From Eledone cirrhosa (Eukaryota), in assembly GCA_964016885.1 (NCBI GenBank), contig OZ024765.1, positions 10,726,001 to 10,790,000 on the forward strand: 64,000 nt of DNA, in the 5' to 3' direction. Shown one piece after another: positions 19,701 through 62,409 of the stretch. The stretch's first letter is position 1. The number at the start of each line of letters is the position of its first letter. Both the position numbers and the translations under genes were made by a program. A model generated the notes under the pieces. That model was given only the letters and a program-made list of their open reading frames with translations. It did not search any database and was not told the origin of the DNA.

Positions 19701-20537
19701 GGTAAAGCCTTTACCATGAAACTACAATACAATAGTATATATAGAGTAATGTAAATGTTATGTGAGATATTATGTGAGGTAAAGCCTTTACCATGAAACT
19801 ACAATATAATAGTATATATAGAGTAATGTAAATGTTATGTGAGATATTATGTGAGGTAAAGCCTTTACCATGAAACTACAATATAATGGTATATATAGAG
19901 TAATGTAAATGTTATGTGAGATATTATGTGAGGTAAAGCCTTTACCATGAAACTACAATATAATAGTATATATAGAGTGATGTAAATGTTATGTGAGATA
20001 TTATGTGAGGTAAAGCCTTTACCATGAAACTACAATATATATATAGATATATAGAGTAATGTAAATGTTATGTGAGATATTATGTGAGGTAAAGCCTTTA
20101 CCATGAAACTACAATATAATAGTATATATAGAGTAATGTAAATGTTATGTGAGATATTATGTGAGGTAAAGCCTTTACCATGAAAATACAATACAATAGT
20201 ATATATAGAGTAATGTAAATGTTACGCGAGATATTATGTGAGGTAAAGCCTTTACCATGAAACTACAATACAATAGTATATATAGAGTAATGTAAATGTT
20301 ATGTGAGATATTATGTGAGGTAAAGCCTTTGCCATGAAAATACAATACAATAGTATATATAGAGTAATGTAAATGACATGTGAGATATTATGTGAGGTAA
20401 AGCCTTTGCCATGAAACTACAATACAATAGTATATATAGAGTAATGTAAATGTTATGTGAGATATTATGTGAGGTAAAGCCTTTACCATGAAACTACAAT
20501 ACAATAGTATATATAGAGTAATGTAAATGCTAAAGGG
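7797..20537 (-). mobile_element. piggyBac-type MITE carrying a giant internal tandem array
   Basis: ttca|CCCTTTAGCATT at the left and AATGCTAAAGGG|ttaa at the right. The non-array parts are the reverse complement of the ~210-bp MITE at 21149-21356 and 51439-51657. Confidence 0.85.
7940..20529. repeat. Satellite array of 72/75/77-bp units, roughly 165 copies
   Basis: Unit gtgaggtaaagcctttaccatgaaactacaatacaatagtatatatagagtaatgtaaatgttatgtgagatattat (77 bp) and a 72-bp ctgtgaaaat variant. Copy number is estimated from length. Confidence 0.97.
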
Positions 20538-29728: not shown

Positions 29729-29804
29729 CGTTTCACACAATACTTGGCTTCGAACAACTGCTCATTCAACCTGAACAGTTTCTTGGATAAAAGTGGGGTG
29801 CAAG
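29729..29804 (+). CDS. PICALM: PICALM/AP180 ANTH-domain exon (RFTQYLASNNCSFNLNSFLDKSGVQ-G), 76 nt, phase 0 to 1
   Basis: Acceptor tttgttttctaatttcag and donor CAAG|gtaaat. Translation matches the PICALM/AP180 motif RFxQYLASxNxxFNLxxFLDKSGxQG. Confidence 0.95.
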
Positions 29805-30912: not shown

Positions 30913-31720
30913 TGGTGTGTTATTTTGTTTAGCTCAGTTCTGTTTCTTTATTGCCCGGACGCTAAGGTTCAGGTCGGATGATTTGGGCATTAATCCTAAT
31001 GCTCCTTTTTCCACAGGGATAGTGTTTGTTTTCATCCTCCATATGCCCTTGATCTCTATTTCCAGGTCTTTGTACTTTGACAGTTTTTCCATTGTTTTTA
31101 CAGATGTATTATTATTATTATTATGGTGGATTGGCAGTATCGGTAGAGAGTCGGACGCCATGCTTTCCGGCGTAGTTACGTCCCTTTACGGTCTGAGTTC
31201 AAATCCCGCCGAGGTTGACTTTACCTTTCATCCTTACGGGGTCGATAAAATAAAGTACCAGTAATGCACTGGGTAATTGCTGGCCTCGTGCCAAAAGTAG
31301 AAACAATTATTATTATTATTTCCATTATTATTTTTATTGCACATCATTACTGCTTTACTGAGCACAGCTCTGTGCACCTTGGGACCTTGGGTATGAGCAG
31401 TGCAGTTTTTGCTGATGTTCTTTCTATTGTAGTGATAGTACTTTTCGTAATATGTGTGCAGTGCCTAGTAGTGCTATTTTTTTTATATGCTTTATATATT
31501 TGTATGTTCTGAGCTTTTGGCTATGTATTTGTCTGTGTGTTTTTTTTTTATTGTTCCTAGAATACCTATTATTAGAGGTATTGTTTCAGTTTTTATTTTC
31601 CACATTCGACTTATATTCCATCTCTAGATCTTTATATTTGGAGAGTTTCGTCATTTCTTTGGAAGGTATATCGTCATCTGTGGGGATTAATACATTTATT
31701 ACAAGGCATTTGTTTCCTTT
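30913..31720 (-). mobile_element. Several short fragments of RLE-type (R4/Dong-like) non-LTR elements interleaved with a SINE and (ATT)n
   Basis: EKLSKYKDLEIEIKGIWRMKTNTIPVEKGALGLM on the minus strand at ~30990-31095. A similar KYKDL segment occurs near 31610-31700. Confidence 0.7.
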
Positions 31721-31789: not shown

Positions 31790-32288
31790 GGAAAGTTTGT
31801 TGAATGAATATCAAGCCGCTACCTGCAGCCTCAGATATTCCGGATGTATCGGAGGGTTCTTGCTGTTCCCAGCAAGCATGCCTTTTGAAGTGTTCCAAAA
31901 AGCGGGGCTGGACTAATCTTCTTTAACCATCCTTGGAAACTCTTTGAGATAGTACCTAGTGCTCCTATGACAATCGGGACGACCTTGATTTCATGGCAGT
32001 TCCAAATCCTTTTTAACTCCCACTTTAAGTCCTGGTATCGGTTAATTTTCTCCCTCTCCTTTTCTTGCAATCTCGTGTCAAAGGGGCAGGCTACATCTAC
32101 AATCAGGCATGATCTTTTTTCCTTGTCCAAAACCACCAGGTCAGGCCTATTGTGTTCTAATTTCTTGTCTGTCTGTATCCTGAAATCCCATAGCACCTTC
32201 ACCTGATCGTTTTCTATCCCTGACTCTGGCTTATGCTCATACCACTTCTCAGAATGTGGTAAATTGCTTACTTTGCATAGGTGCCAGT
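31790..32288 (-). mobile_element. RLE-type (R4/Dong-like) non-LTR retrotransposon 3' fragment, restriction-like endonuclease domain
   Basis: VLWDFRIQTDKKLEHNRPDLVVLDK...IVDVACPFD...EKINRYQDL...VPIVIGALG...LQKACLLGTARTLR: the PD..D nuclease and K..Y..L motifs. Confidence 0.88.
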
Positions 32289-33760: not shown

Positions 33761-33879
33761 ACAGGATGCTAGGAGTTAAAGCTGAACAAATTTCAAGAGG
33801 ACATTTAATAGGAGTGAGGGAAAGGTTTTTTTTTTTCTTTTTTCAGTTTCTTTTCACAGCAATTCATTTTAAATTTCAG

Positions 33880-33933
33880 CTTTACAGCAAAATCTAACCG
33901 GCAACCCCGATTTTTATGCCCTCATCAGACAAG
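33880..33933 (+). CDS. PICALM: Candidate alternative cassette exon A of PICALM/AP180 (A-LQQNLTGNPDFYALIRQ-G), 54 nt, phase 1-1
   Basis: Long polypyrimidine tract then aaatttcag|; donor CAAG|gtaacc. Length is divisible by 3 and has no stop in the frame set by the phase-1 intron. Protein-level homology to 49482-49532. Confidence 0.7.
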
Positions 33934-34136
33934 GTAACCCTTGCAGTGCACTGCTTAGAGCAATGTTTATAGCATTGCAGAACTGTCCTAGTTTGTAGAT
34001 CTTTGGATGCAAACCAGCATTTGCACTTTTATATTGCAGCCCTCAATCACAAAATCCTTAGGGGGTGGGAAAAGTATCAAGAAAGGTTTTTTTTAAAAAA
34101 CTGTATTGGTAGAGTTTGTGAAGGCACATGGCTTAA

Positions 34137-34334
34137 CCCTTAAGCATTTCCACTACTCTATATTTACTATTATATTTTTGTGGTAAAGGCTTTACCTCAC
34201 ATAATATCGAATCTATGAGATTTTGATGTTATTTATTTTGAGTACAATACCTTAACATCAGTATGATTGGCCAGTTTGAAGAGAAAGACGTGAGAGAATT
34301 CTGGCCGGATACGGCCAGTTTAAATGCTAATGGT
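34137..34334 (+). mobile_element. piggyBac-type MITE inserted into the head of a SINE family 2 copy
   Basis: aaggcacatggc-TTAA|CCCTTAAGCATTT ... AAATGCTAATGGT|TTAA-tggctaaag. Removing the insert restores a SINE A-box-like sequence. Confidence 0.8.
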
Positions 34335-34459
34335 TTAATGGCTAAAGTCTAAAGTGCCTGATTCTCGGGTACATGTTGTGCCCTTGAGCAAGACATTTTA
34401 TTTCACGTTTCCCCAGTTGACTCAGCTAGCAAAAATAGGATCATTAGCAAATGTTGGAA

Positions 34460-35275
34460 TGGTTATCTTTGCCTTTCTTCCTTATGGAGTCGATAAAATA
34501 AAGTACCAGTAACACACTGGGGTTGATTTAATCAACTCCCCCCCCCTCTCTCTTAAAATAGATGGCCTTCTACCTAAATCAGAAAGCATTACTATTTGCT
34601 GCAATAGTTATGTCCCTTTACATTCTGAGCTCAAATCCCACCAAGGTTAGCTTTGCCTTCCTTCCTTAAGGGGTCGATAAAATAGAGTACCAGTAACACA
34701 CTGGGGTTGATTTAATTGACTTTCCCCTCCCACAAAATTGCTGGCCTTGTGCCTAAATCAGAAACCATTATTATTTGCATAGAGTTGCATCCCTTTACAT
34801 TCTGAGCTCATCCTGCCGAAGTTAGCTTTGCTTTTCACCTTATAGGGTCGATAAAATAAAGTACCAGTAATGCATTGGGGTTGATTTAATTGACTTTCTC
34901 CTCCACTAAAATTGTTGGCCTGGTGCCTAACTCAGACACCGTTATTATTAGCATAGAGTTGCGGCCCTGAGCTCATCCTGCCGAGGTTAGCTTTGCTTTT
35001 CTACCTTACGGGGTCGATAAAATAAAGTACCAGTAATGCATTGGGGTTGATTTAATTGACTTTCTCCTCCACTAAAATTGTTGGCCTGGTGCCTAACTCA
35101 GACACCGTTATTACTAGCATAGAGTTGCGGCCCTGAGCTCATCCTGCCGAGGTTAGCTTTGCTTTTCTTCCTTACGGGGTCGATAAAATAAAGTACCAGT
35201 AATACACTGGCGTCGATTTAGTCGACTTTCTCCCAAAATTGTTGGCCTTGTGTCTAAATCAGAAACCATTATCAT
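34460..35275 (+). repeat. Tandem run of SINE family 1 bodies (~170-180-bp period)
   Basis: gtcgataaaata.agtaccagtaa occurs five times. Confidence 0.85.
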
Positions 35276-35552
35276 CAGCAAGAATCCCCCTCCCTACTCA
35301 AAGGATGAAGGAATCCAGGAGAGAGTGGCCCTTGTCTATGGTACCCTTGGTAAACCGTGGGGGTGGGGGATAATTATCTGAGTGGTGTTCATCCCTATTA
35401 ATTTCAGGAGTAGACTGTCTCCCTGTCCCCCCATTGTATTGACCTACCACCACCGTCACCCATTAGTATCCTGTCCCCTACCATTGACATCTCTCACCCC
35501 CTACCATCATATTAGGTTACTTAAATGTTTTAATTGATTTTCTAGGGAAGAT

Positions 35553-36510
35553 ACTCTCTCTTTCCTCTCTCCCCTTCTCTTCCCCCTCCCTCATATCTTC
35601 CTCTCTATCTCTCACTCTGTCTCTCTCACTCTGTCTTTCCCCCTCTCCTCCCCCTCTTTCTTTCCCCCTCTCCTCCCCCTCTTTCATATCTTCCTCTCTA
35701 TCTCTCCCTCTCCCTCTCTCTTCCAATCTTCCTCCTCTCTCACTCTGTCTCTCCCTCTCTCTCTTCCAATCTTCCCCCTCTCTCACTCTCCCTCCCTCTC
35801 TCCCCTCTCTCTCACTCTCCCTCCCTCCCTCTCTCTCTCTCTTCCAATCTTCCTCTCTATCTCTCACTCTGCCTATCCCCCTCTCTTCCCCCTCTCTTTT
35901 CCCCTCTCTTTCCCCCTCTCCCTCTCTCTTTCCCCCTCTCCCTCTCTCTTTCCCCCTCTCTTCCCCCTCTCTCATATCTTCCTCTCTATCTCTCACTCTG
36001 TCTCCCCCTCCTCTCTTTCTCCTCTCTCATATCTTTCTCTCTGTTCCTCTCTCTCTGTCTGTCTCTCTCTCTCTCATAAATTGTTCATACTAATCACTAA
36101 CACTAATGAGCAATATACACAGTGCACATACATGTATACACACTGTAATACACATGCAATACACAGATACAACACACCACCATTCAATCAACACCACCCC
36201 CACCACCACACAAAACTAACACCACATCACCACCACCACCTCCACCACCACCTCCACCAGTAACACCAGACCACCACCACCACCACCTCCACCACCAGTA
36301 ACACAAAACTAACACCAAACTAACACCACACCATCTCCACCACATCACCACCTCCACCACCAGTAACATAAAACTAACACCAGACCACCGCAGCACCACC
36401 AGTAACACAACCCCCCCCCACCACCACCACCAGCAACACAAAACTACCCCCCCCCCCCCACCACCACCACCAGTAACACAAAACCATCACCACCACCTTC
36501 ACCACCTCAC
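35553..36510. repeat. (CT)-rich and (CAC)n low-complexity tracts
   Basis: Simple repeats are directly visible. Confidence 0.9.
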
Positions 36511-36758
36511 ATATCACATGTTTTTGAGGGCAGTTTCCTTCATGTCTTTTTCTTATCATCTTGACACTGTTCCTCATCTTACACCACCCACCCCCCACTA
36601 CTTTATGACGTTAATATTTCATTAGATAAAAGAGAATTAATTACATATATAGAAACACACACACACCTGTCTGTCTGTCTATCTTTATACTATATATATA
36701 TATATATAAATAAAAATAACAGGAGGCTGGACTGGTGTAAATCCTTGAAAGGTTTATT

Positions 36759-36816
36759 ATACTATGATCATTTCAATGACCGGGTTCCATATGAATCCGG
36801 TGATATCATCAGGTAT
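36759..36816 (-). ncRNA. Degenerate minimal hammerhead ribozyme motif
   Basis: Minus strand reads atac-CTGATGA-tatcACCGG..CCGGTcatt-GAAA-T-gatc-A-TA-gtat. The base of stem II is mismatched and stem I is only 4 bp. Confidence 0.4.
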
Positions 36817-37314
36817 TCGAAATATAACAAAGGAATATGTAAAAACCATGGGTCCGAAAAATCAGAGACAGAGAGGACGACTGACCAACTAGCTGCCTTC
36901 ACCTCGGCCAGTCGCCGGTCAAGATTGACCATACGGAATGACCAATTCTATCCAGTGGTGAACCAACAAACCAAAAAAAAAAAAAAAAAAAAGATATATA
37001 TATATGTATATTCCTCCTGTTTGACCTGTGCGAAATTCCTTCCTTGCTCACATTTCAACCAGGTTTGATGGTCTTTATTCTCTCTCGTTCACGATTTCAC
37101 CGAACTTATATTCATGGAAATTTGGGACTTGACTCGTTCTTCCTCACTTTTCGTTGCTTTACCATCTTTGTTTGTTTACACTCTCGCTGTTCCCTTTATT
37201 TACATGTCCCAACGACTTTCTTTAGCCGTTGCTCGCACCAGCCAGAGGTATATGGTCTTTAAAGCGAAGAAATACCGATGATGGCTGGAAGATCACTGAT
37301 GAAGGACCACTTTA

Positions 37315-37355
<41 letters not shown>

Positions 37356-38088
37356 CATTAACAGAGAAAGCTTTAAGCAATACTCCGACCGACTCCCATC
37401 TCACTCAACAAACATTGGGATATACCTGAGTATAATCCCAATTATATGTTTGGGGTGCTAACTATATTGTATTTTGTGGATAGCCGGTTGTATTATTTTA
37501 TACGAGACATAATTAAATAAATCTCTCTTTCCATACGATCGTTTCGTTATAAGTTTCCTACAAATTGGGAAAATAATGTCCAGGTTATGTAGAAGCTTGC
37601 ATGTAGTCCATAGGTATACATACAAGTGGGCCCTTATAATTCATCAGTGGCTGCCCAGGCAATATCAATATAAAAAACCACATTGATATTAATATTCAGC
37701 GATGGTCCCCGTCAGTGCTAGAATGACTGCCAAAATTTGAAAGTCCTGTAGTCCTTCAAAAAGAAATTTCACACTGTACCCAAACGCGAAGGGCAGGTCA
37801 TCGTAAAACATAAAATAATATATACGTAGGTCATTGAGCCCTATTATGAATTCTACCCACGCGTGAAGAACTCAATTGGATATTTAAAAAAATAAATATA
37901 TGTATGTACTATATATATATATATATATATATGAATTTCGATGTTAAAATTGTATTCATACCCATTCAGGGTTCCTAATTAAACCCTTTACTTCCCTCTG
38001 AGCCTCCGAGGAGCCCAACTTGGGCATAACATGTGTAAGAGCTCCTTATAAATATATTTTTACGGTCTGCTTCTCTTTTTTCAATTTC

Positions 38089-38129
<41 letters not shown>

Positions 38130-38210
38130 TTGTGTATAATGGTAGCTATGGTGCTTCCATAGGTGGTATGCCAAAATTAGCACTCAATATTCATACAGAG
38201 CAGAGTGTGG

Positions 38211-38434
38211 ATAGTAGAAAAAAATGAAAGATCAGTGATGCATCTGGACTCAGTTTATTGCGTGTTACAATTGTTTCGAGTGAGAACTGCCCGTGTCCGA
38301 AGGAACCTGTTGCCGTAGACTCAGCCAGATCCATACAGTGATCATGTCTCGAGCTAACTGCCGGCGAAACAATTGTAACACACACAATAAACTGAGTCCA
38401 GATGCATCAGCGATTTTTCGTTTTTTTATACTAT
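38211..38434. mobile_element. MITE-like element with ~70-bp terminal inverted repeats
   Basis: tgatgcatctggactcagtttattg.gtgttacaattgtttcg versus cgaaacaattgtaacac..caataaactgagtccagatgcatca. Confidence 0.75.
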
Positions 38435-38767
38435 ATCATCATCATCGTTTAACGTCCATCTTCCACGCTAGCATGGTTCTGGACGGGAATTGTCCCACTT
38501 GAGGCAAGATTGGTTGTCTTGCTCGTATAGGACTCTCTGGCGGGTTTTCTACGGCTGGATGCCCTTCCTAACACCAACCACGTTTACAGTGTGGATATAT
38601 ATATATATATATAGTTCAAGGAAGCAACAAACAGAATTACAAAAAGTCTTATTTGTTTCATGTTTTTATTTTGAAAAAGGGAAAGAAATTTTGGCGTGCC
38701 CTTCTTCGAGCATACAAAAAAATAGAGACAGGATCAAAGGATAGATACATATATATATATATATATA

Positions 38768-38933
38768 CTGTATTTCCCAGCATCGAAGACACTACTATTT
38801 CCCTAAAATAGTTAAAAAAATCTACCATGCATCCTGGAGGCCGAAGGTTGTTCATTATTTTTTTTCAAATTTTTGGTTGTCAAAATTAAGGTGCGTCCTG
38901 GAGGACGAAGCATCTTTGGCACCGGGAAATATG
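38768..38933. mobile_element. Tc1/mariner-type MITE, second copy, within (TA)n
   Basis: ta|CTGTATTTCCCAG...CCGGGAAATATGC|ta. The body is similar to 28511-28683. Confidence 0.8.
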
Positions 38934-38991
<58 letters not shown>

Positions 38992-39137
38992 TTAGGAAGG
39001 GCATCCAGCCGTAGAAAACCTGCCAGACAGTCCTATACAAGCGAGACTTGGTCACTTGACCAATCTTGCCTCAAGTAGGACAATTCCCGCCTAAACCCAT
39101 GCTAGCGTGGAAGATAGACGTTAAACGATGATGATGA

Positions 39138-39217
<80 letters not shown>

Positions 39218-39623
39218 AGTCACATAGCTTAGTGGTTAGAGCATTGGCCTTGCAATCGAAAGGTTGAGAGTTCAATTCTCAGACCGGGTGATGTGTTGTT
39301 TCCTTGAGCAAGACACTTTATTTCACATTGCTCCAGTTTACTCAGCTGTAGAAATGAAATGAAATAATTATCTTATGTTGTTTATTACATAACTATATAT
39401 ATTCATTTGATTTATTGATTTATTGATTTTTTATCTGAGTGTCCCGAATCTTCCAGATCGCAACTTTTCGATCGTACGGTTGATTATAGACTTGTTCTAT
39501 GTGTGACGGTATTTTAACGATAGTTATAGCTCTGATTTATCTAAATTATGGAGCACTCTGCCGCTCATATCGAATTTTGTTTATCGTGAACTCGTGCGCC
39601 GATTTTTCGATACTCGATTATTC

Positions 39624-39684
<61 letters not shown>

Positions 39685-40041
39685 AATAAGAGGAAAGCAC
39701 AAATGGTGGATAGTTTCCCTTCATCAGTTGTCTGCTATGCATAATGCATAGAAATGTCCATGATCTCCAGAAGACAACTGATGAAGGGAAGCTACCCCTC
39801 CCCCCCCCCCCCCCCGTCTGTGCTTTTCTCTTATTTATAAATACATTTTATTCAGCAACAACACAGCCCCTGTTCCTTCACAAATATATATATATGTATA
39901 TATAAGTTTATCCCGGGTTCAATCGGGGGTAACCACAGTAAGTAAGGTACTCAATACATAGCAGAGTAGAAATATTTCATATACAAATGGCTTCTACAGG
40001 ACTAGAACTGTTTCATTCGAGAGAAATGATCACACACATAT

Positions 40042-40072
<31 letters not shown>

Positions 40073-40084
40073 CATACACATGCA

Positions 40085-40163
<79 letters not shown>

Positions 40164-40490
40164 ATGTATCTAGACAAAACATATACACCTATTTAATTAG
40201 TTCAAAGACCAACCTGCTTTGTGTCTGTATAATCTTTGTTAATGTCAACTCTTATCTACATAAGTTGAATTATTTTAAATTAATTAGCTAATTATTTTAT
40301 ATTCGACCATTAGATAGAGCAACTGAAGTCTGAATGTGTGTGTGTGTGTGTGTGTGTGTGTATAGAATCATGGATGCAAGAAGCACCATGTGCTAATGGA
40401 ATTTCGTGAATTTTATTTATATATATATATATATATACATACATACAACAGACATATATATATATGTATACACACATACAAATGAAACAG

Positions 40491-40523
<33 letters not shown>

Positions 40524-40614
40524 GTTAACTTTGCCTTTCATCCTTACGGGGTCGATAAAATAAAGTACCAGTAATGCACTGGATAATTGCTGGCCTTGTG
40601 CCAAATGTAGAAAC

Positions 40615-40670
<56 letters not shown>

Positions 40671-40705
40671 CATCATTATTTTACGCCTGCTTTTCCCTGC
40701 TTGTA

Positions 40706-40764
<59 letters not shown>

Positions 40765-40974
40765 ATAATTATTTAAATCTACCTCGCGTCTAAAAATAAC
40801 AATTTTTTTTTTCAGCCCACCACTTCAACTTCATTTGCATATTCATCAAAATAATTCGAAATATTTGATTTTTCCTTTCTTCCCCTTTTCCCTCTTTCCT
40901 TCCACTATCCAGACAGAACTTGAGCCTTTAAGGTCTGATTCCTGGGTATGGCACTATTTATAAAACAAACTTTG

Positions 40975-41035
40975 TATTTTATCTGATGAGAGGGTACCAA
41001 AGTTTTGGTACTCTTGAAATATATATAATAGAATA
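40975..41035 (+). ncRNA. Minimal type-I hammerhead ribozyme motif
   Basis: Stem I tattttat/atagaata; CTGATGA (40983-40989); stem II gagggtaccaaa/tttggtactctt with G-U pairs; GAAA; T-atat-A; ATA cleavage triplet. Confidence 0.65.
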
Positions 41036-41147
41036 AGTATGGTTTTATAAATATAGTTTCTATTCATTGGTATCATTGATATATATATATATATACACCC
41101 ATACATGCACATACTCACACATACGAATGAAACTTCTATATATATAT

Positions 41148-41840
41148 ATCATCATCATCATCATCATCAGGTTTAGCGTCCGTGTTCCACGCTTGCATGG
41201 GTTTGGACGGGGGTTTTCCCACTTGAGGCAAGAGTGGTTGTCTTGCTCGCATAGGACTGTCTGGCGGGTTTTCTACAGTTGGATGCCCTTCCTAACACCA
41301 ACCACATTTACAGTGTGGGGCTGGGAGGTTTTTACCGTGTTGCCTACACGTCCACATTACAGCGTGGACTGTCTGGCGGGTTTTCTACAGCTGGATGCCC
41401 TTCCTAACACCAACCACATTTACAGTGTGGGGCTGGGAGGTTTTTACCATGTTGCCTACACGGCCACATTTACAGCGTGGACTGTGTGTTTTTTTGTCGT
41501 GACACCTACACGATCTCATTTGTTTCGGCCTGGATGTTGTGGGGCCAACATAACTTTACATTGAAAGGGGCGGTGTGGATGAGGTGGAGGTGGTGGGACG
41601 GGGGGGGGGGTGTTTTGATAGAGATGCCTACTGACTGTAGTAGGTTTTTACTTTGTATTTAGGTAAGGCGGGTCTTCTCTATTACTGAGTACCGCCAAAG
41701 GTCTCGGTCCAGTGACATTGTCTTGGAGAGGTGTAAGCGTGTGAGGTCGGAATTTATCAGCTCGTCCCATGTTTTTCTGGGTCTGCCTACTCCGTGGCTA
41801 CCGTCTATCTTTATTGCCCTGCACTTTGTTATACAGCTGT
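41148..41840 (-). mobile_element. RTE-clade LINE 3' fragment with partly duplicated UTR
   Basis: (CAT)n at the left, two ggatgcccttcctaacaccaacc segments, and minus-strand coding similar to GRPRKTWDEL at ~41760-41790. Confidence 0.75.
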
Positions 41841-42059
41841 CGTATATATATACAAAAAGTTATGAAACGAAAGGAGCTGTGTGGTTACTAAAAACAAGGT
41901 TTAAGATGGTGGTCAGGACGGAGCAGGAGGAGAAAGGAAGAAAGGAGTTTCCATCGTCAGCTGTAAATGTTTCCCGGACCGATGTTTCGGCGCGTAATTA
42001 CAGGACATCGTGTAGTTCGGGTGCACCCGAGGCCTTTTATTAATCAATATATATATATA

Positions 42060-42399
42060 TGGAGGCACATGGCTTAGTGGTTAGAGCATTGGCCTTGCAA
42101 TCGAAAGGTTGTGAGTTCAATTCTCAGACTGGGTGATGTGTTGTTTCCTTGAGAAAGACACTTTATTTCACATTGCTCCAGTTTACTCAGCTGTAGAAAT
42201 GAGATGATAGGGACTGGGGTCCCTATCATTCCACTGCAAAGTGGTCGTGGAGGTGCCACGGCAAAAAAGCACCCAGCACTCACTGTAAATGAGGTTGGTG
42301 TTAGGAAGGGCATCCAGCTGTAGAAATCAAGCCAGCATCAGTTCCCGTCCCACCCTTGCAAGCAGGGAAAAAGCGGACGTAAAATGAAATGATGATGAT
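42060..42399 (+). mobile_element. Full-length SINE family 2 (tRNA head, CORE-like domain, RTE-like tail)
   Basis: Near-identical reverse complement of 29218-29560. Confidence 0.87.
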
Positions 42400-43241
42400 G
42401 GAACAACTCAATATATATATATATGGAACAACTCATCTAATGCATGGTAGCTTGCAAAAATGGACGGTAAACAGTGATGATGATGATATATATATATATA
42501 TGTGTGTGTCTGTGTGTGAGTTGTTATCTTGAAGCATCCTGTTGTTATGGCAAGCCGAGAACAACAAAAGCACAAACTCTGAGCCAGTTTCTTATTATGA
42601 TCTTCTGACAAAGGGTGTTTAGACTCTAAATATTAAGACATGTAAATATAATAATAGGTGGCATAACAAAGGTTCTGACATAAAATTATGTTGGAAGGTT
42701 TTTAAATAAATATAAACACTTTAACCTTTTCATTACCATATTTCTCATGAAAGACATTGCATTTTAAAGTTGATGTTTAGAACATAACTTAACATAAAAT
42801 TATGTTGGAAGGTTTTTAAATAAATATAAACAATTTAACTATTTCATTACCATATTTCTCATGAAAGATATTGCATTTTAAAGTTGATATTTAGAACATA
42901 ACTTAACATAAAATTATGTTGGAAGGTTTTAAAATAAATATAAACAATTTATCCTTTTTGTTACCACATTTTTAATGAAAACATTGCATTATTAAGCAGG
43001 GCAGTTGATTGGCAGAATTGGTAGAGAGTCGGACACCATGCTTTGTAGTATAGAGTTACGGCCCTTTATGATCTGAGTTCAAATCCCACCAAGGTTAACT
43101 TTACCTTTCATCCTTACGGGGTCGATAAAATAAAGCACCAGTAATGCACTGGGATAATTGCTGGCCGTGTGCCAAAAGTAGAAACAATTATTAAGCTGGT
43201 ATTTGGATCATAACTTAACAAAGGTTCTTACATAAAATTAT

Positions 43242-43545
43242 AACTGTTGCTTGTGATACAAACTATGCAGTGTGGAAATGCCTAAACAAACTAAGATCTG
43301 GTGTTGGAGATGTGAAAGTCACTCTTGCAAAATAGGGACATTTAAAGAATGGGGACGCTGTGTGTGACTGTGGTATCGAACCACAGACTACACAGCACCT
43401 CTTGATATACCCCCTGCTGGAACACCCCTGTACAGCATTAGACTTAGCAGAGTTTAAGGAAAAAGGACAGCAATGCGTTCAGCTGTGGCAGAACCACATC
43501 TAGTCAAGCTTTGTAACTGACATTCTTGTGGACACGACAAGAAGA
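43242..43545 (+). mobile_element. Ingi/Vingi-like (I-group) LINE 3' fragment with target-site duplication
   Basis: WKCLNKLRSGVGDVKVTLAK*GHLKNGDAVCDCGIEPQTTQHLLIYP (zinc-knuckle-like CxCG..QTxxHL), aagaag tail, flanked by acataaaattat / acatagaattat. Clade is assigned from recalled motifs. Confidence 0.7.
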
Positions 43546-44320
43546 ACATAGAATTATGTTGGAAGATTTTTAGGCATAAACACTTTAACCTTTTCATTAA
43601 CACATTTCTAATGAAGAACACTGTATTATTATTATTAAGCTAGTGTTCGGAACATAACTCAACAAAGGTTCTTAAATAAAATTATGTTGGAAGATTTTTA
43701 GATATAAACACTTTAACCTTTTCATTACCACATTTCTAATGAAAGAAATTGCATTTTGGATCATAACTTAACAAAGGTTCTGAGAAAAACTTATGTTGGA
43801 AAATCTTTAGATAAATATAAACAATTTAACCTTTTCGTTACCACATTTCTAATGAAAGACACTGTATTATTGAACTGGTGTTTGGAACATAACTTAACAA
43901 AGGTTCTTAAATAAAATTATGTTAGAAGATTTTTAGATATATATAAACAAATTTAACCTTTTCGTTACCACATTTCTAATGAAAGACACTGTGTTATTGA
44001 GCTGATATTTGGAACATAACTTAAAGGTTTTTAGTTAAAATTATGTTGCAAAATTTTTAGATAAATATAAACAATTTAACCTTTTCGCAACCACAATTCT
44101 AATGAAAGATACTATAGTATTAAGCTGGTGTTTGGATCATAACTTAACAAAGGTTTTTAGATAAAATTATGTTGTAAGATATTTAGATAAATATAAACAA
44201 TTTAACCTTTTCGCTACATTTCTAATGAAAGACACTGTAGTATTAAGCTGGTGTTTGGAACATAACTTAACAAAGGTTTTAGATAAAATTATGTTGGAAG
44301 ATATTTAGATAATTAGTATT

Positions 44321-44758
44321 AGAGACCCAAGATGACTTGGGATGAGGTGATAAAAGCCGACCTTACCCAACTACACCTCTCAAAGTCAATGACACACGAC
44401 CGTGACTTCTGGCGTCACGCAGTAATACAGGGTACCCGACCTCCCATGGGTACATGCTGAAGCATATAAACAATAGGCCCCCCCCCCCCCCCCCCCACCG
44501 CAAGGTGGTCGTGGAGGTGCCACGGCAAAAAAGCACCCAGCCCACACTGTAAAGTGGACGTGTAGGCGCCACGAAAAAGCACCCAGCACTCACTGTAAAT
44601 GAGGTTGGTGTTAGGAAGGGCATCCAGCTGTAGAAATCAAGCCAGATCAGTTCCTGTATGAGCAAGGCATGGTCAGCCGACCAGACACTGCCCACAACAG
44701 GACAACCCGTCTAACCCATGCTAGCGTGGAAGAACGGACGTAAAACGGTGATGATGAT
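44321..44758 (+). mobile_element. RTE-clade LINE 3' fragment
   Basis: Near-identical to 6233-6690. Confidence 0.82.
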
Positions 44759-46109
44759 AAATATAAACAATTTAACCTTTTCGCTACATTTCTAATGAAA
44801 GACACTGTAGTATTAAGCTGGTGTTTGGAATATAACTTAACAAAGGTTTTTAGATAAAATTATGTTGAAAGATATTTAGATAAATATAAACAATTTAACC
44901 TTTTCGCAACCACAATTCTAATGAAAGATACTATAGTATTAAGCTGGTGTTTGGATCATAACTTAACAAAGGTTTTTAGATAAAATTATGTTGCAAGATA
45001 TTTAGATAAATATAAACAATTTAACCTTTTCGCAACCACAATTCTAATGAAAGATACTGTAGTATTAAGCTGGTGTTTGGATCATAACTTAACAAAGGTT
45101 TTTAGATAAAATTATGTTGCAAGATATTTAGATAAATATAAACAATTTAACCTTTTCGCTACCACAATTCTAATGAAAGACACTGTAGTATTAAGCTGGT
45201 GTTTGGAACATAACTTAAGAAAGGTTTTTAGATAAAATTATGTTGCAAGATATTTAGATAAATATAAACAATTTAACCTTTTCGCTACCACAATTCTAAT
45301 GAAAGACACTGTAGTATTAAGCTGGTGTTTGGAACATAACTTAACAAAGGTTTTTAGATAAATATATGCACTTGAACACAAAGCGCTTAGTATGAGAAAT
45401 AAGGATTGTTTACTGTAACATGGTATCATAGAAACAGGAGAGGTTTCAGGTGATTTTATATGGAAAGTGTTAATTAAAAGTGTAATATTGTCAGAATATT
45501 TCAATATTAATGAAGACATATGCAGCATTTTTAGTGTTTTTTGCTGCTGTTGTTGTTGCAGCCGCAGATGCTGCTGTTGATGTTGATGATGTTGCTGTTG
45601 TACTTGTTAGTCTCTGTTGGTCACTGACCTTTGTGACGGTTGTATATGTATGTGCATATGCATCTGTCACAAATGTGTGTATGCTTGTATGTGTATGTGC
45701 ATATACACATACGTGCATACACACATTTATACATATATACAAGCTCTCTCTCTCTCACACACACATACAGCTCATACACACACATCCACACACACACATA
45801 CCAGCTCATGCACACACACACGCATCCACACACACACACACACACACATACACAAAGCAGCGTTAGAATCTCTTCACATCTTTCTAGAGTTTCTCTTATA
45901 TCTGTGACTACATCAGATGTCAGCCATCAACACCTCAAACATTGCACCTTTTGTTCTCTCTGTATCTTAACTTTCTTAACTGACATTGTCTTTCATATGC
46001 AGTGAATTGACTAAGCTGGCAGAGCATCCAATTAAATACTTGTTTGTTCTGTTTGTCTTAGGTCTGATGGATGGGTTGGCAGGAGTGAAAGGAAATTTAC
46101 AGATCACAC

Positions 46110-49100
46110 CTACAAGGTTGTATCTCATAAGAGATATCTTGGGGGTTTTAATGATAGGGGCCACACCTATGTCATAGCTCACACCTATGTAGGTATAGCT
46201 GGTCTCCTACAAGGTTGTATCTGATTAGTTTCTAGGGAGTTTTAATGATAGGGGCCACATCCATGTTGTGTTGTTGTGGATATAGCTTGCCTCTATGTAG
46301 GTTTAGCAGATCTCTACAAGGTTGTATTTCATAGGAGTTTTCTAGGGAGTTTTAATGATAGGGGCCACATCCATGTTGTGTTGTTGTGGATACAGCTCAC
46401 CTCTACATAGGTTTAGCAGGGCAACTACAAGATTACATCTGATAGGAGGTTTTTAGGGTGTTTCAATGATAGGGGACATAGTCCTATCTTGTGGATACAG
46501 CTCACCTCTACATAGGTTTAGCAGGGCAACTACAAGGTTATATCTGATAGGAGGTTTTTAGGGTGTTTCAATGATAGGGGACATAGTCCTATCTTGTGGA
46601 TACAGCTCACCTCTACATAGGTTTAGCTGGGCAACTACAAGGTTACATCTGATAGGAGGTTTTTAGGGTGTTTCAATGATAGGGGACATAGTCCTATCTT
46701 GTGGATACAGCTCACCTCTACATAGGTTTAGCTGGGCAACTACAAGGTTACATCTGATAGGAGGTTTTTAGGGTGTTTCAATGATAGGGGACATAGTCCT
46801 ATCTTGTGGATACAGCTCACCTCTACATAGGTTTAGCTGGGCAACTACAAGGTTATATCTGATAGGAGGTTTTTAGGGTGTTTCAATGATAGGGGACATA
46901 GTCCTATCTTGTGGATACACCTCACCTCTACATAGGTTTAGCTGGGCAACTACAAGGTTATATCTGATAGGAGGTTTTTAGGGTGTTTCAATGATAGGGG
47001 ACATAGTCCTATCTTGTGGATACAGCTCACCTCTACATAGGTTTAGCTGGGCAACTACAAGGTTATATCTGATAGGAGGTTTTTAGGGTGTTTCAATGAT
47101 AGGGGACATAGTCCTATCTTGTGGATACAGCTCACCTCTACATAGGTTTAGCAGGGCAACTACAAGGTTACATCTGATAGGAGGTTTTTAGGGTGTTTCA
47201 ATGATAGGGGACATAGTCCTATCTTGTGGATACAGCTCACCTCTACATAGGTTTAGCTGGGCAACTACAAGGTTATATCTGATAGGTTTTTAGGGTGTTT
47301 CAATGATGGGGGACATAGTCCTATCTTGTGGATACAGCTCACCTCTACATAGGTTTAGCTGGGCAACTACAAGGTTACATCTGATAGGAGGTTTTTAGGG
47401 TGTTTCAATGATAGGGGACATAGTCCTATCTTGTGGATACAGCTCACCTCTACATAGGTTTAGCTGGGCAACTACAAGGTTACATCTGATAGGAGGTTTT
47501 TAGGGTGTTTCAATGATAGGGGACATAGTCCTATCTTGTGGATACAGCTCACCTCTACATAGGTTTAGCTGGGCAACTACAAGGTTATATCTGATAGGTT
47601 TTTAGGGTGTTTCAATGATAGGGGACATAGTCCTATCTTGTGGATACAGCTCACCTCTACATAGGTTTAGCTGGGCAACTACAAGGTTACATCTGATAGG
47701 AGGTTTTTAGGGTGTTTCAATGATAGGGGACATAGTCCTATCTTGTGGATACAGCTCACCTCTACATAGGTTTAGCTGGGCAACTACAAGGTTATATCTG
47801 ATAGGAGGTTTTTAGGGTGTTTCAATGATAGGGGACATAGTCCTATCTTGTGGATACACCTCACCTCTACATAGGTTTAGCTGGGCAACTACAAGGTTAT
47901 ATCTGATAGGAGGTTTTTAGGGTGTTTCAATGATAGGGGACATAGTCCTATCTTGTGGATACACCTCACCTCTACATAGGTTTAGCTGGGCAACTACAAG
48001 GTTATATCTGATAGGTTTTTAGGGTGTTTCAATGATAGGGGACATAGTCCTATCTTGTGGATACAGCTCACCTCTACATAGGTTTAGCTGGGCAACTACA
48101 AGGTTACATCTGATAGGAGGTTTTTAGGGTGTTTCAATGATAGGGGACATAGTCCTATCTTGTGGATACAGCTCACCTCTACATAGGTTTAGCTGGGCAA
48201 CTACAAGGTTATATCTGATAGGAGGTTTTTAGGGTGTTTCAATGATAGGGGACATAGTCCTATCTTGTGGATACAGCTCACCTCTACATAGGTTTAGCAG
48301 GGCAACTACAAGGTTATATCTGATAGGAGGTTTTTAGGGTGTTTCAATGATAGGGGACATAGTCCTATCTTGTGGATACAGCTCACCTCTACATAGGTTT
48401 AGCTGGGCAACTACAAGGTTACATCTGATAGGAGGTTTTTAGGGTGTTTCAATGATAGGGGACATAGTCCTATCTTGTGGATACAGCTCACCTCTACATA
48501 GGTTTAGCTGGGCAACTACAAGGTTATATCTGATAGGAGGTTTTTAGGGTGTTTCAATGATAGGGGACATAGTCCTATCTTGTGGATACAGCTCACCTCT
48601 ACATAGGTTTAGCTGGGCAACTACAAGGTTATATCTGATAGGAGGTTTTTAGGGTGTTTCAATGATAGGGGACATAGTCCTATCTTGTGGATACAGCTCA
48701 CCTCTACATAGGTTTAGCTGGACAACTACAAGGTTACATCTGATAGGAGGTTTTTAGGGTGTTTCAATGATAGGGGACATAGTCCTATCTTGTGGATACA
48801 GCTCACCTCTACATAGGTTTAGCAGGGCAACTACAAGGTTATATCTGATAGGAGGTTTTTAGGGTGTTTCAATGATAGGGGACATAGTCCTATCTTGTGG
48901 ATACAGCTCACCTCTACATAGGTTTAGCAGGGCAACTACAAGGTTATATCTGATAGGAGGTTTTTAGGGTGTTTCAATGATAGGGGACATAGTCCTATCT
49001 TGTGGATACAGCTCACCTCTACATAGGTTTAGCAGGGCAACTACAAGGTTATATCTGATAGGAGGTTTTTAGGGTGTTTCAATGATAGGGGACATAGTCC

Positions 49101-49330
49101 TATCTTGTGGATACAGCTCACCTCTACATAGGTTTAGCAGGGCAACTACAAGGTTATATCTGATAGGAGGTTTTTAGGGTGTTTCAATGATAGGGGACAT
49201 AGTCCTATCTTGTGGATACAGCTCACCTCTACATACGTTTAGCTGGACAACTACAAGGTTATATCTGATAGGAGGTTTTTAGGGTGTTTCAATGATATGG
49301 GTCCCAGTGTTGTTGTTACAGCTCACACCT
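46110..49330 (+). repeat. 105-bp tandem array (~28 homogeneous copies plus degenerate flanks)
   Basis: gtggatacagctcacctctacatagg recurs at 46491, 46596 and 46701 onward. Confidence 0.95.
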
Positions 49331-49481
49331 ATGTATCTTTAGCTGTCCTCCTATGCATCTTTGCTGAAAAAGCAAACACACTGTATATGTTATTTTCCCC
49401 CCTTTTCTTCTGTTTTATAATTCTTAACATTTTCAACAATTTTTCATTCTCATGTCTATCTTTGTTTCTTTTCTGTTTCAG

Positions 49482-49532
49482 CTCCGCAACAGCCTATCCC
49501 AGGCTCTCCAGACTTTCATGCAATCAAGCAAG
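49482..49532 (+). CDS. PICALM: Candidate alternative cassette exon B of PICALM/AP180 (A-PQQPIPGSPDFHAIKQ-G), 51 nt, phase 1-1
   Basis: Acceptor tctttgtttcttttctgtttcag| and donor CAAG|gttagt. In frame with no stop. Homologous to exon A (11 identical residues including the junction A and G). Confidence 0.72.
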
Positions 49533-49579
49533 GTTAGTATGCTGTTACTGTTACTGTTGTTATTATTATTGTGTAATTG

Positions 49580-53232: not shown

Positions 53233-53335
53233 GCTATGACATGTCAACATTCATAAGAAGATATGCCAAATATTTGAATGAAAAGGCTATTTCTTACAGA
53301 TTAATGGCATTTGACTTCTGTAAAATAAAGAGAGG
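53233..53335 (+). CDS. PICALM: PICALM/AP180 exon ([35 protein letters not shown]), 103 nt, phase 1 to 2
   Basis: ttatattttcag| ... AGAGG|gtatgt. Contains the hallmark ANTH sequence [18 protein letters not shown]. Confidence 0.96.
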
Positions 53336-54150
53336 GTATGTAATATATGTGTATATATATATATGTGTGTGTGTATAAGAGGGAGAGTGTGTTTTTATAT
53401 ATATATTGATGGCATTTGACTTCTGTAAAATAAAGAGAGGGTATGTAATATATGTGTATATATATATATATATATGTGTGTGTGTATAAGAGGGAGAGTG
53501 TGTTTTTATATATATATTGATGGTGTTTGACTTCTGTAAAATAAAGAGAGGGTATGTAATATATGTGTATATATATATATATGTGTGTGTATAAGAGGGA
53601 GAGTGTGTTTTTACATATATATTGATGGTGTTTGACTTCTGTAAAATAAAGAGAGGGTATGTAATATATGTGTATATATATATATATGTGTGTGTGTATA
53701 AGAGGGAGAGTGTGTTTTTATATATATATTGATGGTGTTTGACTTCTGTATAAAGAGAGGGTATGTAATATATGTGTATATATATATATATATGTGTGTG
53801 TGTATAAGAGGGAGAGTGTGTGTTTATATATATTGATGGTGTTTGACTTCTGTAAAATAAAGAGAGGGTATGTAATATATGTGTATATATATATATGTGT
53901 GTGTGTATAAGAGGGAGAGTGTGTTTTTATATATATATTGATGGTGTTTGACTTCTGTAGAATAAAGAGAGGGTATGTAATATATGTGTATATATATATA
54001 TATGTGTGTGTGTATAAGAGGGAGAGTGTGTGTTTATATATATTGATGGCATTTGACTTCTGTAGAATAAAGAGAGGGTATGTAATATATGTGTATATAT
54101 ATATATATGTGTGTATAAGAGGGAGAGTGTGTGTTTATATATATATATAA
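53303..54150 (+). repeat. ~105-110-bp tandem repeat made of the exon 3' end, its splice donor and following intron (original plus 7 copies)
   Basis: atgg(ca/tg)tttgacttctgta.aataaagagagg|gtatgtaatatatgtg recurs at ~53304, 53409, 53520, 53625, 53732, 53836, 53941 and 54046. Confidence 0.93.
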
Positions 54151-54632: not shown

Positions 54633-54749
54633 TATATTGATGGTGTTTGACTTCTGTGAAATAAAGAGTCTGTAATATATGTATGTGTGTGTGAAAGAGA
54701 GATACAGTGTCGAAATGGCTGGAGCTTGGCTGTTGGGGTCCTGACTTTT

Positions 54750-59056: not shown

Positions 59057-59096
59057 AAAAGATGATGGTACGTTAAGGACCATGAATGCAGAAAAG
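59057..59096 (+). CDS. PICALM: PICALM/AP180 exon (G-KDDGTLRTMNAEK), 40 nt, phase 2 to 0
   Basis: tttgtttttacag| ... AAG|gtagag. Continues the frame and matches GxxGxxRxMNxEK. Confidence 0.93.
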
Positions 59097-59114
59097 GTAG
59101 AGTTTAGTTTATTA

Positions 59115-59548
59115 CTTCTCTACCTCCTCTATCCTCTCTCTCCCCTCCTCTCTCCCCTCCTCTCTCCCCTCCTCTCTCCTCTCTCTCCCCTCCTCTCTCC
59201 TCTCTCTCCCCTCCTCTCTCCTCTCTCTCCCCTCCTCTCTCCTCTCTCTCCCCTGCTCTCTCTTCTCTCTCCCCTGCTCTCTCTTCTCTCTCCCCTGCTC
59301 TCTCTTCTCTCTCCCCTGCTCTCTCTTCTCTCTCCCCTGCTCTCTCTTCTCTCTCCCCTGCTCTCTCCTCTCTCTCTCTCCCTTGCATTCTCTTCTCTCT
59401 CTCCCTTGCTTTCTCTTCTCTCTCCCTCGTTTTCTCTCCTATCTTTCACTTTCTCTCTCTCACTTTCTGCTCTCTCTGTCTCTCACTTTCTCTTCTCTCT
59501 CTCTGTCTCTCACTTTCTCTCTCTTTCTCTTCTCTCTCTCTCTCTTTC

Positions 59549-59585
<37 letters not shown>

Positions 59586-59616
59586 CTTTCTCCTCTCACT
59601 CTCCCTCATTTTCTCT

Positions 59617-59657
<41 letters not shown>

Positions 59658-59888
59658 TTCTCCTCTCACTCTCCCTCGTTTTCTCCTCTCTCTCTCTCAC
59701 TTTCTCTCCTCTATCTCTCTCTCACTTTCTCTCCTCTATCTCTCTCTCACTTTCTCTCCTCTATCTCTCTCTCACTTTCTGCTCTCTCTCTTACTTTCTC
59801 CTCTCTCTCTCTTTCACTTTCTCCTCTCTCTCTCTTTCACTTTCTCCTCTCTCTCTCTTTCACTTTCTCCTCTCTCTCTCTTTCACTT

Positions 59889-59926
<38 letters not shown>

Positions 59927-59928
59927 CT
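59115..59928. repeat. (CT)-rich microsatellite tract filling most of an intron
   Basis: Simple repeats are directly visible. Confidence 0.95.
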
Positions 59929-59969
59929 AGTTTACCTCTAAACCTTTATTTTATTTTTGTGTTTTCCAG

Positions 59970-60026
59970 CTTTTGAAAACTTTGCCTGTATTACAGAAAC
60001 AGATGGATGCCCTTCTTGATTTTTAT
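59970..60026 (+). CDS. PICALM: PICALM/AP180 exon (LLKTLPVLQKQMDALLDFY), 57 nt, phase 0-0
   Basis: gtgttttccag| ... TAT|gtaagt. Matches LLKTxPxxQxQMDALLDF. Confidence 0.95.
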
Positions 60027-60071
60027 GTAAGTCACAACATATAAAAAGTATTTAATTACCGACCAATGTAT

Positions 60072-60567
60072 CATCATCATCATCATCGGGTTTAGCGTCC
60101 GTGTTCCACGCTTGCATGGGTTTGGACGGGGGTTTTCCCACTTGAGGCAAGAGTGGTTGTCTTGCTCGCATAGGACTGTCTGCCGGGTTTTCTACAGCTG
60201 GATGCCCTTCCTAACACCAACCACATTTACAGTGTGGGGCTGGGAGGTTTTTACCGTGTTGCCTACACGGCCACATTACAGCGTGGACTGTCTGGCAGGT
60301 TTTCTACAGCTGGATGCCCTTCCTAACACCAACCTCATTTACAGTGAGTGCTGGGTGCTTTTTTGCCGTGGCACCTCCACGACCACTTTGCAGTGGAATG
60401 ATAGGGATCCCAGTCCCTATCATCTCATTTCTACAGCTGAGTAAACTGGAGCAATGTGAAATAAAGTGTCTTGCTCAAGGAAACAACACATCACACGGTC
60501 TGAGAATTGAATTCACAACCTTTCGATTGCAAGCCCAATGCTCTAACCACTAAGCCATGTGCCTCCA
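60072..60567 (-). mobile_element. SINE family 2 copy with an extended/chimeric RTE-like tail
   Basis: Head and CORE-like part match 42060 onward. The tail matches the 41148-41430 type, with ggatgcccttcctaacacc present twice. Confidence 0.8.
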
Positions 60568-60611
<44 letters not shown>

Positions 60612-60830
60612 AATATTATATATAAGAATATTTATGTTTAATCAAGAGCTAAGATATTTAGTAGATAAATTACATAAAATTCATTCATGATTTATTTAAA
60701 GTAATCCAACTTATTTTAATAATGTGTTCAGAAAAAATAAAAAGTACACAGTGTCGCAGTTCTCCAATCATTGTATGTTAGATATAGTTTAATATTTATA
60801 AATATTTCTCCTCTTCTCACCTATTTTCAG

Positions 60831-60942
60831 TGCACACCAAATGAATTGACTAATGGAGTTATAAACGCTTGCTTCCTGCTTTTGTTTAAAGATTTGATCC
60901 GGTTATTTGCTTGTTATAATGATGGCATAATCAATTTATTAG
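60831..60942 (+). CDS. PICALM: PICALM/AP180 exon ([38 protein letters not shown]), 112 nt, phase 0 to 1
   Basis: cctattttcag| ... TTAG|gtaagt. Conserved NELTNGVIN...[15 protein letters not shown]. Confidence 0.96.
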
Positions 60943-61118
60943 GTAAGTTAACTAGTTAATTAGCAATCTACTTATATATAATAGCCTTGTGTATTTGTCC
61001 GTCACAAGAGATGACCGAGGAAGGAAGGGGTGATTACGTCTACAGAGGAAGGAGGAGGGGATGAGAAAGTCCAGCATTCTAAGATTTGTCACAGCTGTGT
61101 GTGTGTATGTGTAGAGAT

Positions 61119-61318
61119 TTGGCTGTATCCGGTCAGAATTCTGTCACCTTTTTCTGTTCAAACCAGCTGTAATTAGCCATTCATACTTACGTTAAGGTAT
61201 TGTTCTCAAAATAAATATCAAAATCTTGTAGAATTGATATTATATGAGCTAATTTTGTGAGGTAAAGCCTTTACCTCAAAAATAAAATAGTAAATAGAGT
61301 AATGTAAATGGTAAAGGG
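61119..61318 (-). mobile_element. piggyBac-type MITE, one end degraded
   Basis: Reverse-oriented family body ending AATGGTAAAGGG|TTAA. Confidence 0.78.
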
Positions 61319-61324
61319 TTAAGT

Positions 61325-62200
61325 CAGGGTCTGATTTTCTCACTGGGGTGTGACTGTAAGTCACTAGGGTGTGATTTTATCAGTACAAATAAGACTGTAA
61401 GTCAGGTGGGATTTGAAGTCAACCAGGTGTGACTGTACATCTGTCAAGCATGGTTGTAAATCAGTCAGGCGTGACTGAAAATCAGTCAGGCATGACTGAA
61501 ACTCAATGAAGTGTGACTGTGAGTCAGGTGTGACAAGAAATCAGGTGTGACTGTAAGTCAGGTGTGAGTTTAAGTCAATCAGCTGTGCCTAAAACAGTCA
61601 AGTGTGACAGTAAGTCAGTCAAGTGTGACAGTAAGTCAGTCAAATGTAACTAAGTCAAGTGTTACTGTAAGTCAGTCAAGTGTGACAGTCAGTCAAATGT
61701 AACTAAGTCAAGTGTTACTGTAAGTCAGTCAAGTGTGACAGTAAGTCAGTCAAATGTAACTAAGTCTAGTGTTACTGTAAGTCAGTCAAGTGTGACAGTA
61801 AGTCAGTCAAATGTAACTAAGTCTAGTGTTACTGTAAGTCAGTCAAGTGTGACAGTAAGTCAGTCAAATGTAACTAAGTCTAGTGTTACTGTAAGTCAGT
61901 CAAGTGTGACAGTAAGTCAGTCAAATGTAACTAAGTCTAGTGTTACTGTAAGTCAGTCAAGTGTGACAGTAAGTCAGTCAAATGTAACTAAGTCTAGTGT
62001 TACTGTAAGTCAGTCAAGTGTGACAGTAAGTCAGTCAAATGTAACTAAGTCTAGTGTTACTGTAAGTCAGTCAAGTGTGACAGTAAGTCAGTCAAATGTA
62101 ACTAAGTCTAGTGTTACTGTAAGTCAATCAGGGGTGACTGAAGTCAATCAGGTGTCACTGTAAATCAGTCAATTGTGGCAGTAAATCAGTCAGGTGTGAC
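61325..62200 (+). repeat. Minisatellite of ~21-bp subunits with a homogeneous 57-bp higher-order core (~61620-62125)
   Basis: gtaagtcagtcaaatgtaactaagtctagtgttactgtaagtcagtcaagtgtgaca repeated. Confidence 0.9.
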
Positions 62201-62259
62201 ATGAGAAAAATTCTGATGATTTATGTTCTTATTTTTATTTTATTTTCTTTCCCCCCCAG

Positions 62260-62366
62260 AAAAATATTTTGATATGAATAAGAAGCAATGTAAAGAAGCT
62301 TTGGATATTTACAAGAAATTTCTTGTCAGAATGGATAAAGTATCAGAATTTTTGAAAGTAGCAGAG
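62260..62366 (+). CDS. PICALM: PICALM/AP180 exon ([36 protein letters not shown]), 107 nt, phase 1 to 0
   Basis: ttttctttcccccccag| ... GAG|gtaaat. Conserved EKYFDM...EFLKVAE. Confidence 0.96.
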
Positions 62367-62409
62367 GTAAATATTGCTATAATGTCTTCCCTATCTATAG
62401 TTTTAAAGT

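Follow-up and report, generated by a model that had tools for sequence, protein, structure and literature searches.

We analysed a window of 64,000 nucleotides (nt) from Eledone cirrhosa (contig OZ024765.1, positions 10,726,001 to 10,790,000 of the forward strand) that contains part of a PICALM/AP180 gene and, within an intron of its ANTH-coding region, two short exons that we call A and B and that lie between the coding exons U and D. An initial annotation made from the letters of this window had described A and B as a hidden pair of possibly mutually exclusive cassette exons. Our analysis instead makes it probable that they are homologous in-frame exons joined in series, with B likely being near-constant and A likely an optional second, diverged copy, both placed in an ANTH-domain loop that is predicted to be flexible. 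The pair would thus likely be an ordinary add-on loop, with one copy likely fixed and the other likely optional, and not an either-or switch; it is already present in automatic annotation and is probably additive. The argument draws on the following features:

29729..29804, plus strand: upstream coding exon U, 76 nt, ending in phase 1 at CAAG/GT; tblastn match to residues 91-117 of O. sinensis isoform X1
33826..33879, plus strand: 3' splice region of exon A, with the pyrimidine tract set back from the acceptor and further AGs at -35 and -22
33880..33933, plus strand: exon A (54 nt, phase 1-1), flanked by TTTCAG on its 5' side and GT on its 3' side
33934..49481, plus strand: intron between A and B, 15,548 nt, rich in repeats
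49482..49532, plus strand: exon B (51 nt, phase 1-1), flanked by TTTCAG on its 5' side and GT on its 3' side
53233..53335, plus strand: downstream coding exon D, 103 nt, after TTTCAG; positions 99-133 of the ANTH profile

Exons A and B in cephalopod proteins

The exons flanking A and B belong to a PICALM/AP180 (ANTH) gene. Exon D scores above the cut-off of the Pfam ANTH family, and in protein the exons of the window equal the PICALM/LAP of Octopus sinensis except for residues at splice edges and, outside the window, a single residue next to an apparent frameshift. As the initial annotation had proposed, A and B lie at the coordinates given above with AG/GT ends, phase 1-1 and the translations that it listed, and both are coding exons of this gene, with the flanking exons matching O. 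sinensis X1 exon by exon. They are not hidden, as had been thought, given that both peptides already stand in public protein records (B in the GenBank protein of squid AP180 and A in Octopus models).

To see how the two exons are combined, we used 447 proteins retrieved by a search with a downstream exon (best 120 of 7986), two region searches, 50% representatives, and three cluster look-ups. The core motif common to A and B occurs in 46 of them, the cephalopod set covering the site, of which 20 have A and B in tandem, 26 have B without A, and none has A alone or neither exon. Tandem forms account for 17 proteins of O. sinensis, with one more being B only (18 of at least 22 numbered isoforms), and for all three of O. 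bimaculoides. B-only forms account for all seven proteins of O. vulgaris, the one protein of Argonauta, the one protein of the squid Doryteuthis (AAF14287.1, where B follows three extra residues), and all 16 proteins from Logan. In a comparison of tails that took in 10 proteins from Logan, Argonauta and O. vulgaris, the eight from Logan reached 83-94% identity with squid against 74-78% with octopus. Within a single species, exon A is both present and absent with the frame kept: isoforms X1 (XP_029652660.1, 802 amino acids (aa), A and B) and X6 (XP_029652666.1, 784 aa, B only) of O. sinensis differ by 18 residues, which is the length of A. In a wider alignment survey, 347 of 393 proteins span both anchors of the site, and several long inserts that look like intron read-through were set aside; all 43 spanning proteins with at least 90% identity to octopus carry B, and the insert-free ones come no closer than chiton isoforms, at 89%.

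At the level of gene models, these counts speak against mutual exclusivity, with A and B joined in 20 of the 46 proteins and A never found alone, and also against the proposed switch between skipping, A and B, for which only B without A (26 of 46) is seen. Frequent joint inclusion, which the initial annotation had itself named as the observation that would count against exclusivity, is thus what the gene models contain. They suggest that B is likely constitutive in coleoids and that A is likely an optional duplicate, met only together with B.

The same proteins could also be read as products of two cassettes, A and B, that are spliced independently of each other and give skip, B, A+B and perhaps A forms, e.g., with neurons including the exons and non-neural tissue skipping them. 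All combinations stay in frame because both exons are symmetric, the insert-free state is common in other animals (220 of the 347 proteins spanning the site), other protostomes have forms with and without an insert, and a skip form of 767 aa would fit a gap in the O. sinensis numbering where four isoforms lie outside our tally. We nevertheless consider such independence quite unlikely, given that none of the 46 cephalopod proteins (16 of them derived from Logan) lacks B, that nothing closer to octopus than the chiton isoforms is insert-free, and that the acceptor of B is clean and its donor strong, though a minor form without A and B may exist in O. sinensis. The opposite extreme, in which both exons are constitutive in E. 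cirrhosa, A is skipped rarely as splicing noise, and the duplication merely lengthened the loop, would agree with the prevalence of A+B in O. sinensis (17/18) and O. bimaculoides (3/3) and with an A peptide that is identical in the window, O. sinensis and O. bimaculoides. It appears highly improbable in view of the absence of A from all seven O. vulgaris proteins and from O. sinensis X6, because of which the B-only form seems common enough to be modelled in a close relative.

Homology and splice signals of the two exons

A and B are a tandem exon duplication, being homologous beyond chance and sharing the same phase. Inside the exons, their peptides are identical in 10 of 18 alignment columns and their DNA in 31 of 54 nt, similarity scores that no shuffle reached, whether of protein (100,000 shuffles) or of DNA (20,000 shuffles). 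Codon positions 1, 2 and 3 are identical in 10, 12 and 6 of 16 cases, respectively, so that third positions are the most diverged, and five of the ten common residues are written with different codons, just as the initial annotation had listed. Its notion of an old exon duplication kept at the protein level agrees well with the peptide identity, the shuffles and the divergence of third positions; the pattern across codon positions is what would be expected of selection on protein after such an event, albeit in a small sample. From the 11 common residues that had been counted, ten indeed lie within the exons, but the 11th is a split junction codon that becomes Gly only when joined to 53233.

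The surroundings of the exons are consistent with an old event and add no support of their own: all that the 200-nt flanks of A and B have in common is a pyrimidine tract plus a short segment similar to a dispersed repeat. The stretches around A (33772-34128) and B (49354-49561) have no other blastn match in the window, and a scan for repeats and hairpins around both exons found only short matches and one dispersed repeat. No third copy was detected in the 3.0-Gb genome with a pattern built from both exons, which matches only these two (by construction) and gave 0 matches in the control. A degenerate pattern for B had 0 matches in metagenome contigs. As to the order of events, B may have been fixed in the coleoid ancestor and its tandem duplication would then have given rise to A; we infer this direction because B is the more widespread of the two.

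The splice signals differ between the exons. The 60 nt upstream of exon B are free of competing AGs, and B obtained the top score (together with a shorter form that uses the same donor) among 1443 open phase-1 AG..GT candidates scanned in the intron, while A failed the filter in the same scan. Among the additional AGs in front of A, use of the one at -35 would bring a TAA (33870-33872) into the reading frame and use of the one at -22 would shift the frame. Because B combines an acceptor free of competing AGs with the top score and A combines further AGs with failure in the filter, B appears to be the constitutive exon and A the optional one, and the weaker 3' splice region of A could be what makes it the regulated exon. 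Other cassette candidates at 31561-31665, 32253-32258 and 34562-34645 passed this crude filter and occur in no retrieved protein. Neural microexons do not exceed 27 nt and carry a UGC element directly upstream of their 3' splice site. A (54 nt) and B (51 nt) are longer than that, and their nearest upstream TGC lies at -113 and -120, respectively.

If A and B were mutually exclusive in most transcripts, the A+B models would have to reflect a minor leak. Mutually exclusive pairs are typically recognised as tandem homologues that match in phase and are close in length (PMC9013439), and B-only forms do exist. However, A+B is modelled in two species and A alone in none of the 46 proteins; an A-only form on the X1 backbone would have 785 aa, and no number is free between X5 (786 aa) and X6 (784 aa). 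According to the criteria of Hatje et al. 2017 (PMC5740500), a read that joins both exons in frame rejects a mutually exclusive candidate, and in the gene models 20 of the 46 proteins, belonging to two species, contain an in-frame A-B junction. Nor does each exon bridge the other, with the U-B form being found in 26 of the 46 and the A-D form in none (four O. sinensis isoforms being outside the tally). The same study reports that 87% of structure-mapped exclusive exons lie in secondary structure and that cassettes tend to surface loops, which is how the A/B insert is modelled.

A mechanism for exclusion did not emerge either. Steric exclusion is impossible across an A-B intron that, at 15,548 nt, is far too long for it. 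Joint inclusion causes no frameshift, both exons being multiples of 3 with GT-AG borders, and every combination of the two symmetric exons keeps the frame. In a search for perfect short pairing, the flanks of A and B had no common 10-nt complementary partner in the intron. As far as the DNA itself can tell, nothing enforces exclusion, and we regard mutual exclusivity as very improbable.

The insert in the ANTH domain and the surrounding gene

Joining A and B in series would let the loop grow from +17 to +35 residues with the fold unchanged. In AlphaFold2 models, the A+B insert sits between helices spanning residues 91-99 and 155-176 with a predicted local distance difference test score (pLDDT) of 47-57 for the block compared to ca. 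87-94 for the neighbouring helices, and the insert of the B-only model similarly scores 54-56. The A+B model keeps the ANTH fold, with a root-mean-square deviation of 1.6 Å to CALM (3zyk). The alignment breaks exactly at residue 116 of mammalian CALM, which marks the position of the insert, and the protein atlas had no usable match for the loop. Exon B, and not A, includes a PGSP motif; with this one, the protein has nine PxSP motifs in all, and PxSP is a kinase consensus. The idea that YALI and NPDF in exon A could alter partner binding has lost much of its appeal, as 5 of the 14 tyrosines in O. sinensis X1 fit YxxPhi (YALI among these) and NPDF is not NPF, of which X1 has true motifs at 412 and 452. 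Previous work places the lipid site of CALM in helices 1-2 (PMC4194041) and its SNARE/ubiquitin site around residues 219-276 (bioRxiv 2021.07.27.454047), both elsewhere in sequence from the insert. The most likely function would be a modest tuning of a surface loop, i.e., of a partner or phosphorylation patch and not of the lipid or SNARE site itself, which we suggest with caution. That B has a function is argued for by the strong conservation of its peptide, which is identical in 16 of 17 residues between octopus and a squid-like protein.

RefSeq models rest on introns supported by RNA sequencing. Several considerations nonetheless weigh against the reading of A and B as exons in series with B near-constant and A optional. 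The isoform classes come from gene models and translated assemblies and not from junction reads, and the isoform lists of RefSeq are combinatorial, so that 17 of 18 does not stand for 17 observations and gives no measure of inclusion level. The A+B form rests on two species, and the O. bimaculoides models begin in intron sequence upstream of A with imperfect 5' ends. For O. sinensis, X2, X9, X11 and X12 are outside the tally, with 15 of the 28 members of one cluster among the matches listed, and a form lacking both exons (767 aa) could fall where X11 and X12 must lie. The absence of A from squid and argonaut is an absence from proteins and not from introns, and the divergence of third positions allows for an older duplication with A being lost or silent in squid. 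Finally, the splice-site filter is crude and uncalibrated on the flanking exons, and the low pLDDT of the insert may reflect few aligned rows instead of disorder. A word search with exon D (four sampled words) found two runs of one study, neither of them listed as RNA, and 0 contigs placed on 49400-49545, which is uninformative on expression or skipping of B.

The gene continues downstream of exon D:

59058..62368, plus strand: four more exons that code for ANTH and match O. sinensis X1, with starts near 59058, 59970, 60831 and 62260

The first two of these (59058-59096, 39 nt, and 59970-60026, 57 nt) are both short and code for a stretch that we take to be a single exon in human PICALM, making the split a possible intron gain. 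At the other end, the ANTH exon just upstream of the window (L002 5226-5369) has, near L002 5256-5258, an apparent one-base frameshift compared to O. sinensis, likely an assembly error. A search of the 3.0-Gb genome for the ANTH family gave nine matches, four at this locus, three at one locus in C25, one in C2, and one in C18 that resembles what we take to be an epsin-type ENTH domain.

The intron before exon U contains a 12.6-kb satellite (7940-20529; 77-bp unit, 167 copies, 96% match), and a 105-bp tandem array of 7.9 copies (53310-54146) includes the last bases of exon D together with its donor. The array holds eight copies of the exon D donor from 53336 to 54078, and more copies, in a decayed state, lie near 54637 and 55642. 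These copies are possible decoy 5' splice sites.

The loop with its likely optional insert and the known relatives

Squid AP180 has been a classic reagent for the study of synaptic endocytosis, and it carries the B peptide. If A were regulated in neurons, it would be a small and testable handle on the evolution of cephalopod synapses. A tentative and rather unlikely extension is that coleoids fixed a unique 17-residue ANTH-loop module in a single AP180/CALM gene and that its duplication in octopuses produced a neuron-regulated exon, by which the module is doubled. If true, the exon would act as a dose switch, under the control of splicing, for a partner or kinase site in synaptic-vesicle recycling, the loop would be one that protostomes have repeatedly used for optional exons, and splicing would do part of what two vertebrate genes do. 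In the readable literature on this gene and on splicing, older AP180 papers on squid, fly and worm aside, we found no description of the A/B pair or of the optional inserts of protostomes, which may be in print.

Among cephalopods, O. sinensis X1/X6 and O. bimaculoides XP_014781553.2 have both peptides identical to those of the window and matching flanking exons, but these records are automatic annotation in which the duplicate nature of A and B goes unremarked. The AP180 of Doryteuthis pealeii (AAF14287.1, P0080) has B at the same site with 16 of 17 residues identical, lacks A, and has three extra residues before B. These residues, seen in this squid protein and in none of the 16 Logan proteins, are possibly encoded by a 9-nt microexon or result from an alternative acceptor; a 9-nt exon coding for them was not found in the intron of this window.

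Beyond cephalopods, an 11-residue insert is found at the same loop in Drosophila LAP (PDB 1HX8), whereas the ANTH domain of mammalian CALM (PDB 1HF8, 3ZYK, 3ZYM, 7JXV) has the same fold and no insert in these constructs, so that the alignment agrees with what the initial annotation had stated about both. The best solved structural matches of the O. sinensis protein are indeed 1hx8 and 1hf8. Crayfish, mosquito, beetle, abalone, mussel and ark clam have inserts of 5-8 residues at this loop, some of them optional, with forms with and without insert in single clusters of crayfish (P0390 vs. P0392), mussel (P0179 vs. P0185) and ark-clam-like Logan proteins (P0437 vs. P0435). Judging from their position, we infer that these inserts of other protostomes are separate exons in the same intron. 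Neither they nor the LAP insert have any sequence likeness to A or B, and those of cephalopods, at 17 and 35 residues, are longer. The "lineage-specific" character that had been attributed to the exons therefore holds for the peptide and not for the loop, where other protostomes have optional inserts of their own. Related inserts of 5, 7 and 15 residues (P0194, P0196 and P0240) suggest that additive stacking also occurs elsewhere. The isoforms of the abalone Haliotis (P0030-P0053 and P0156-P0169) differ by two residues at the start of the insert, as a tandem acceptor would give.

Compared to mutually exclusive tandem exons as described in PMC5740500, A and B are alike in being tandem, homologous, of similar length and in the same phase. 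They are unlike them in lacking an A-to-D form and a mechanism that we could find, in their location in a loop, and in being joined in frame in the models. Homologous tandem exons thus need not be exclusive, and A and B appear to stack.

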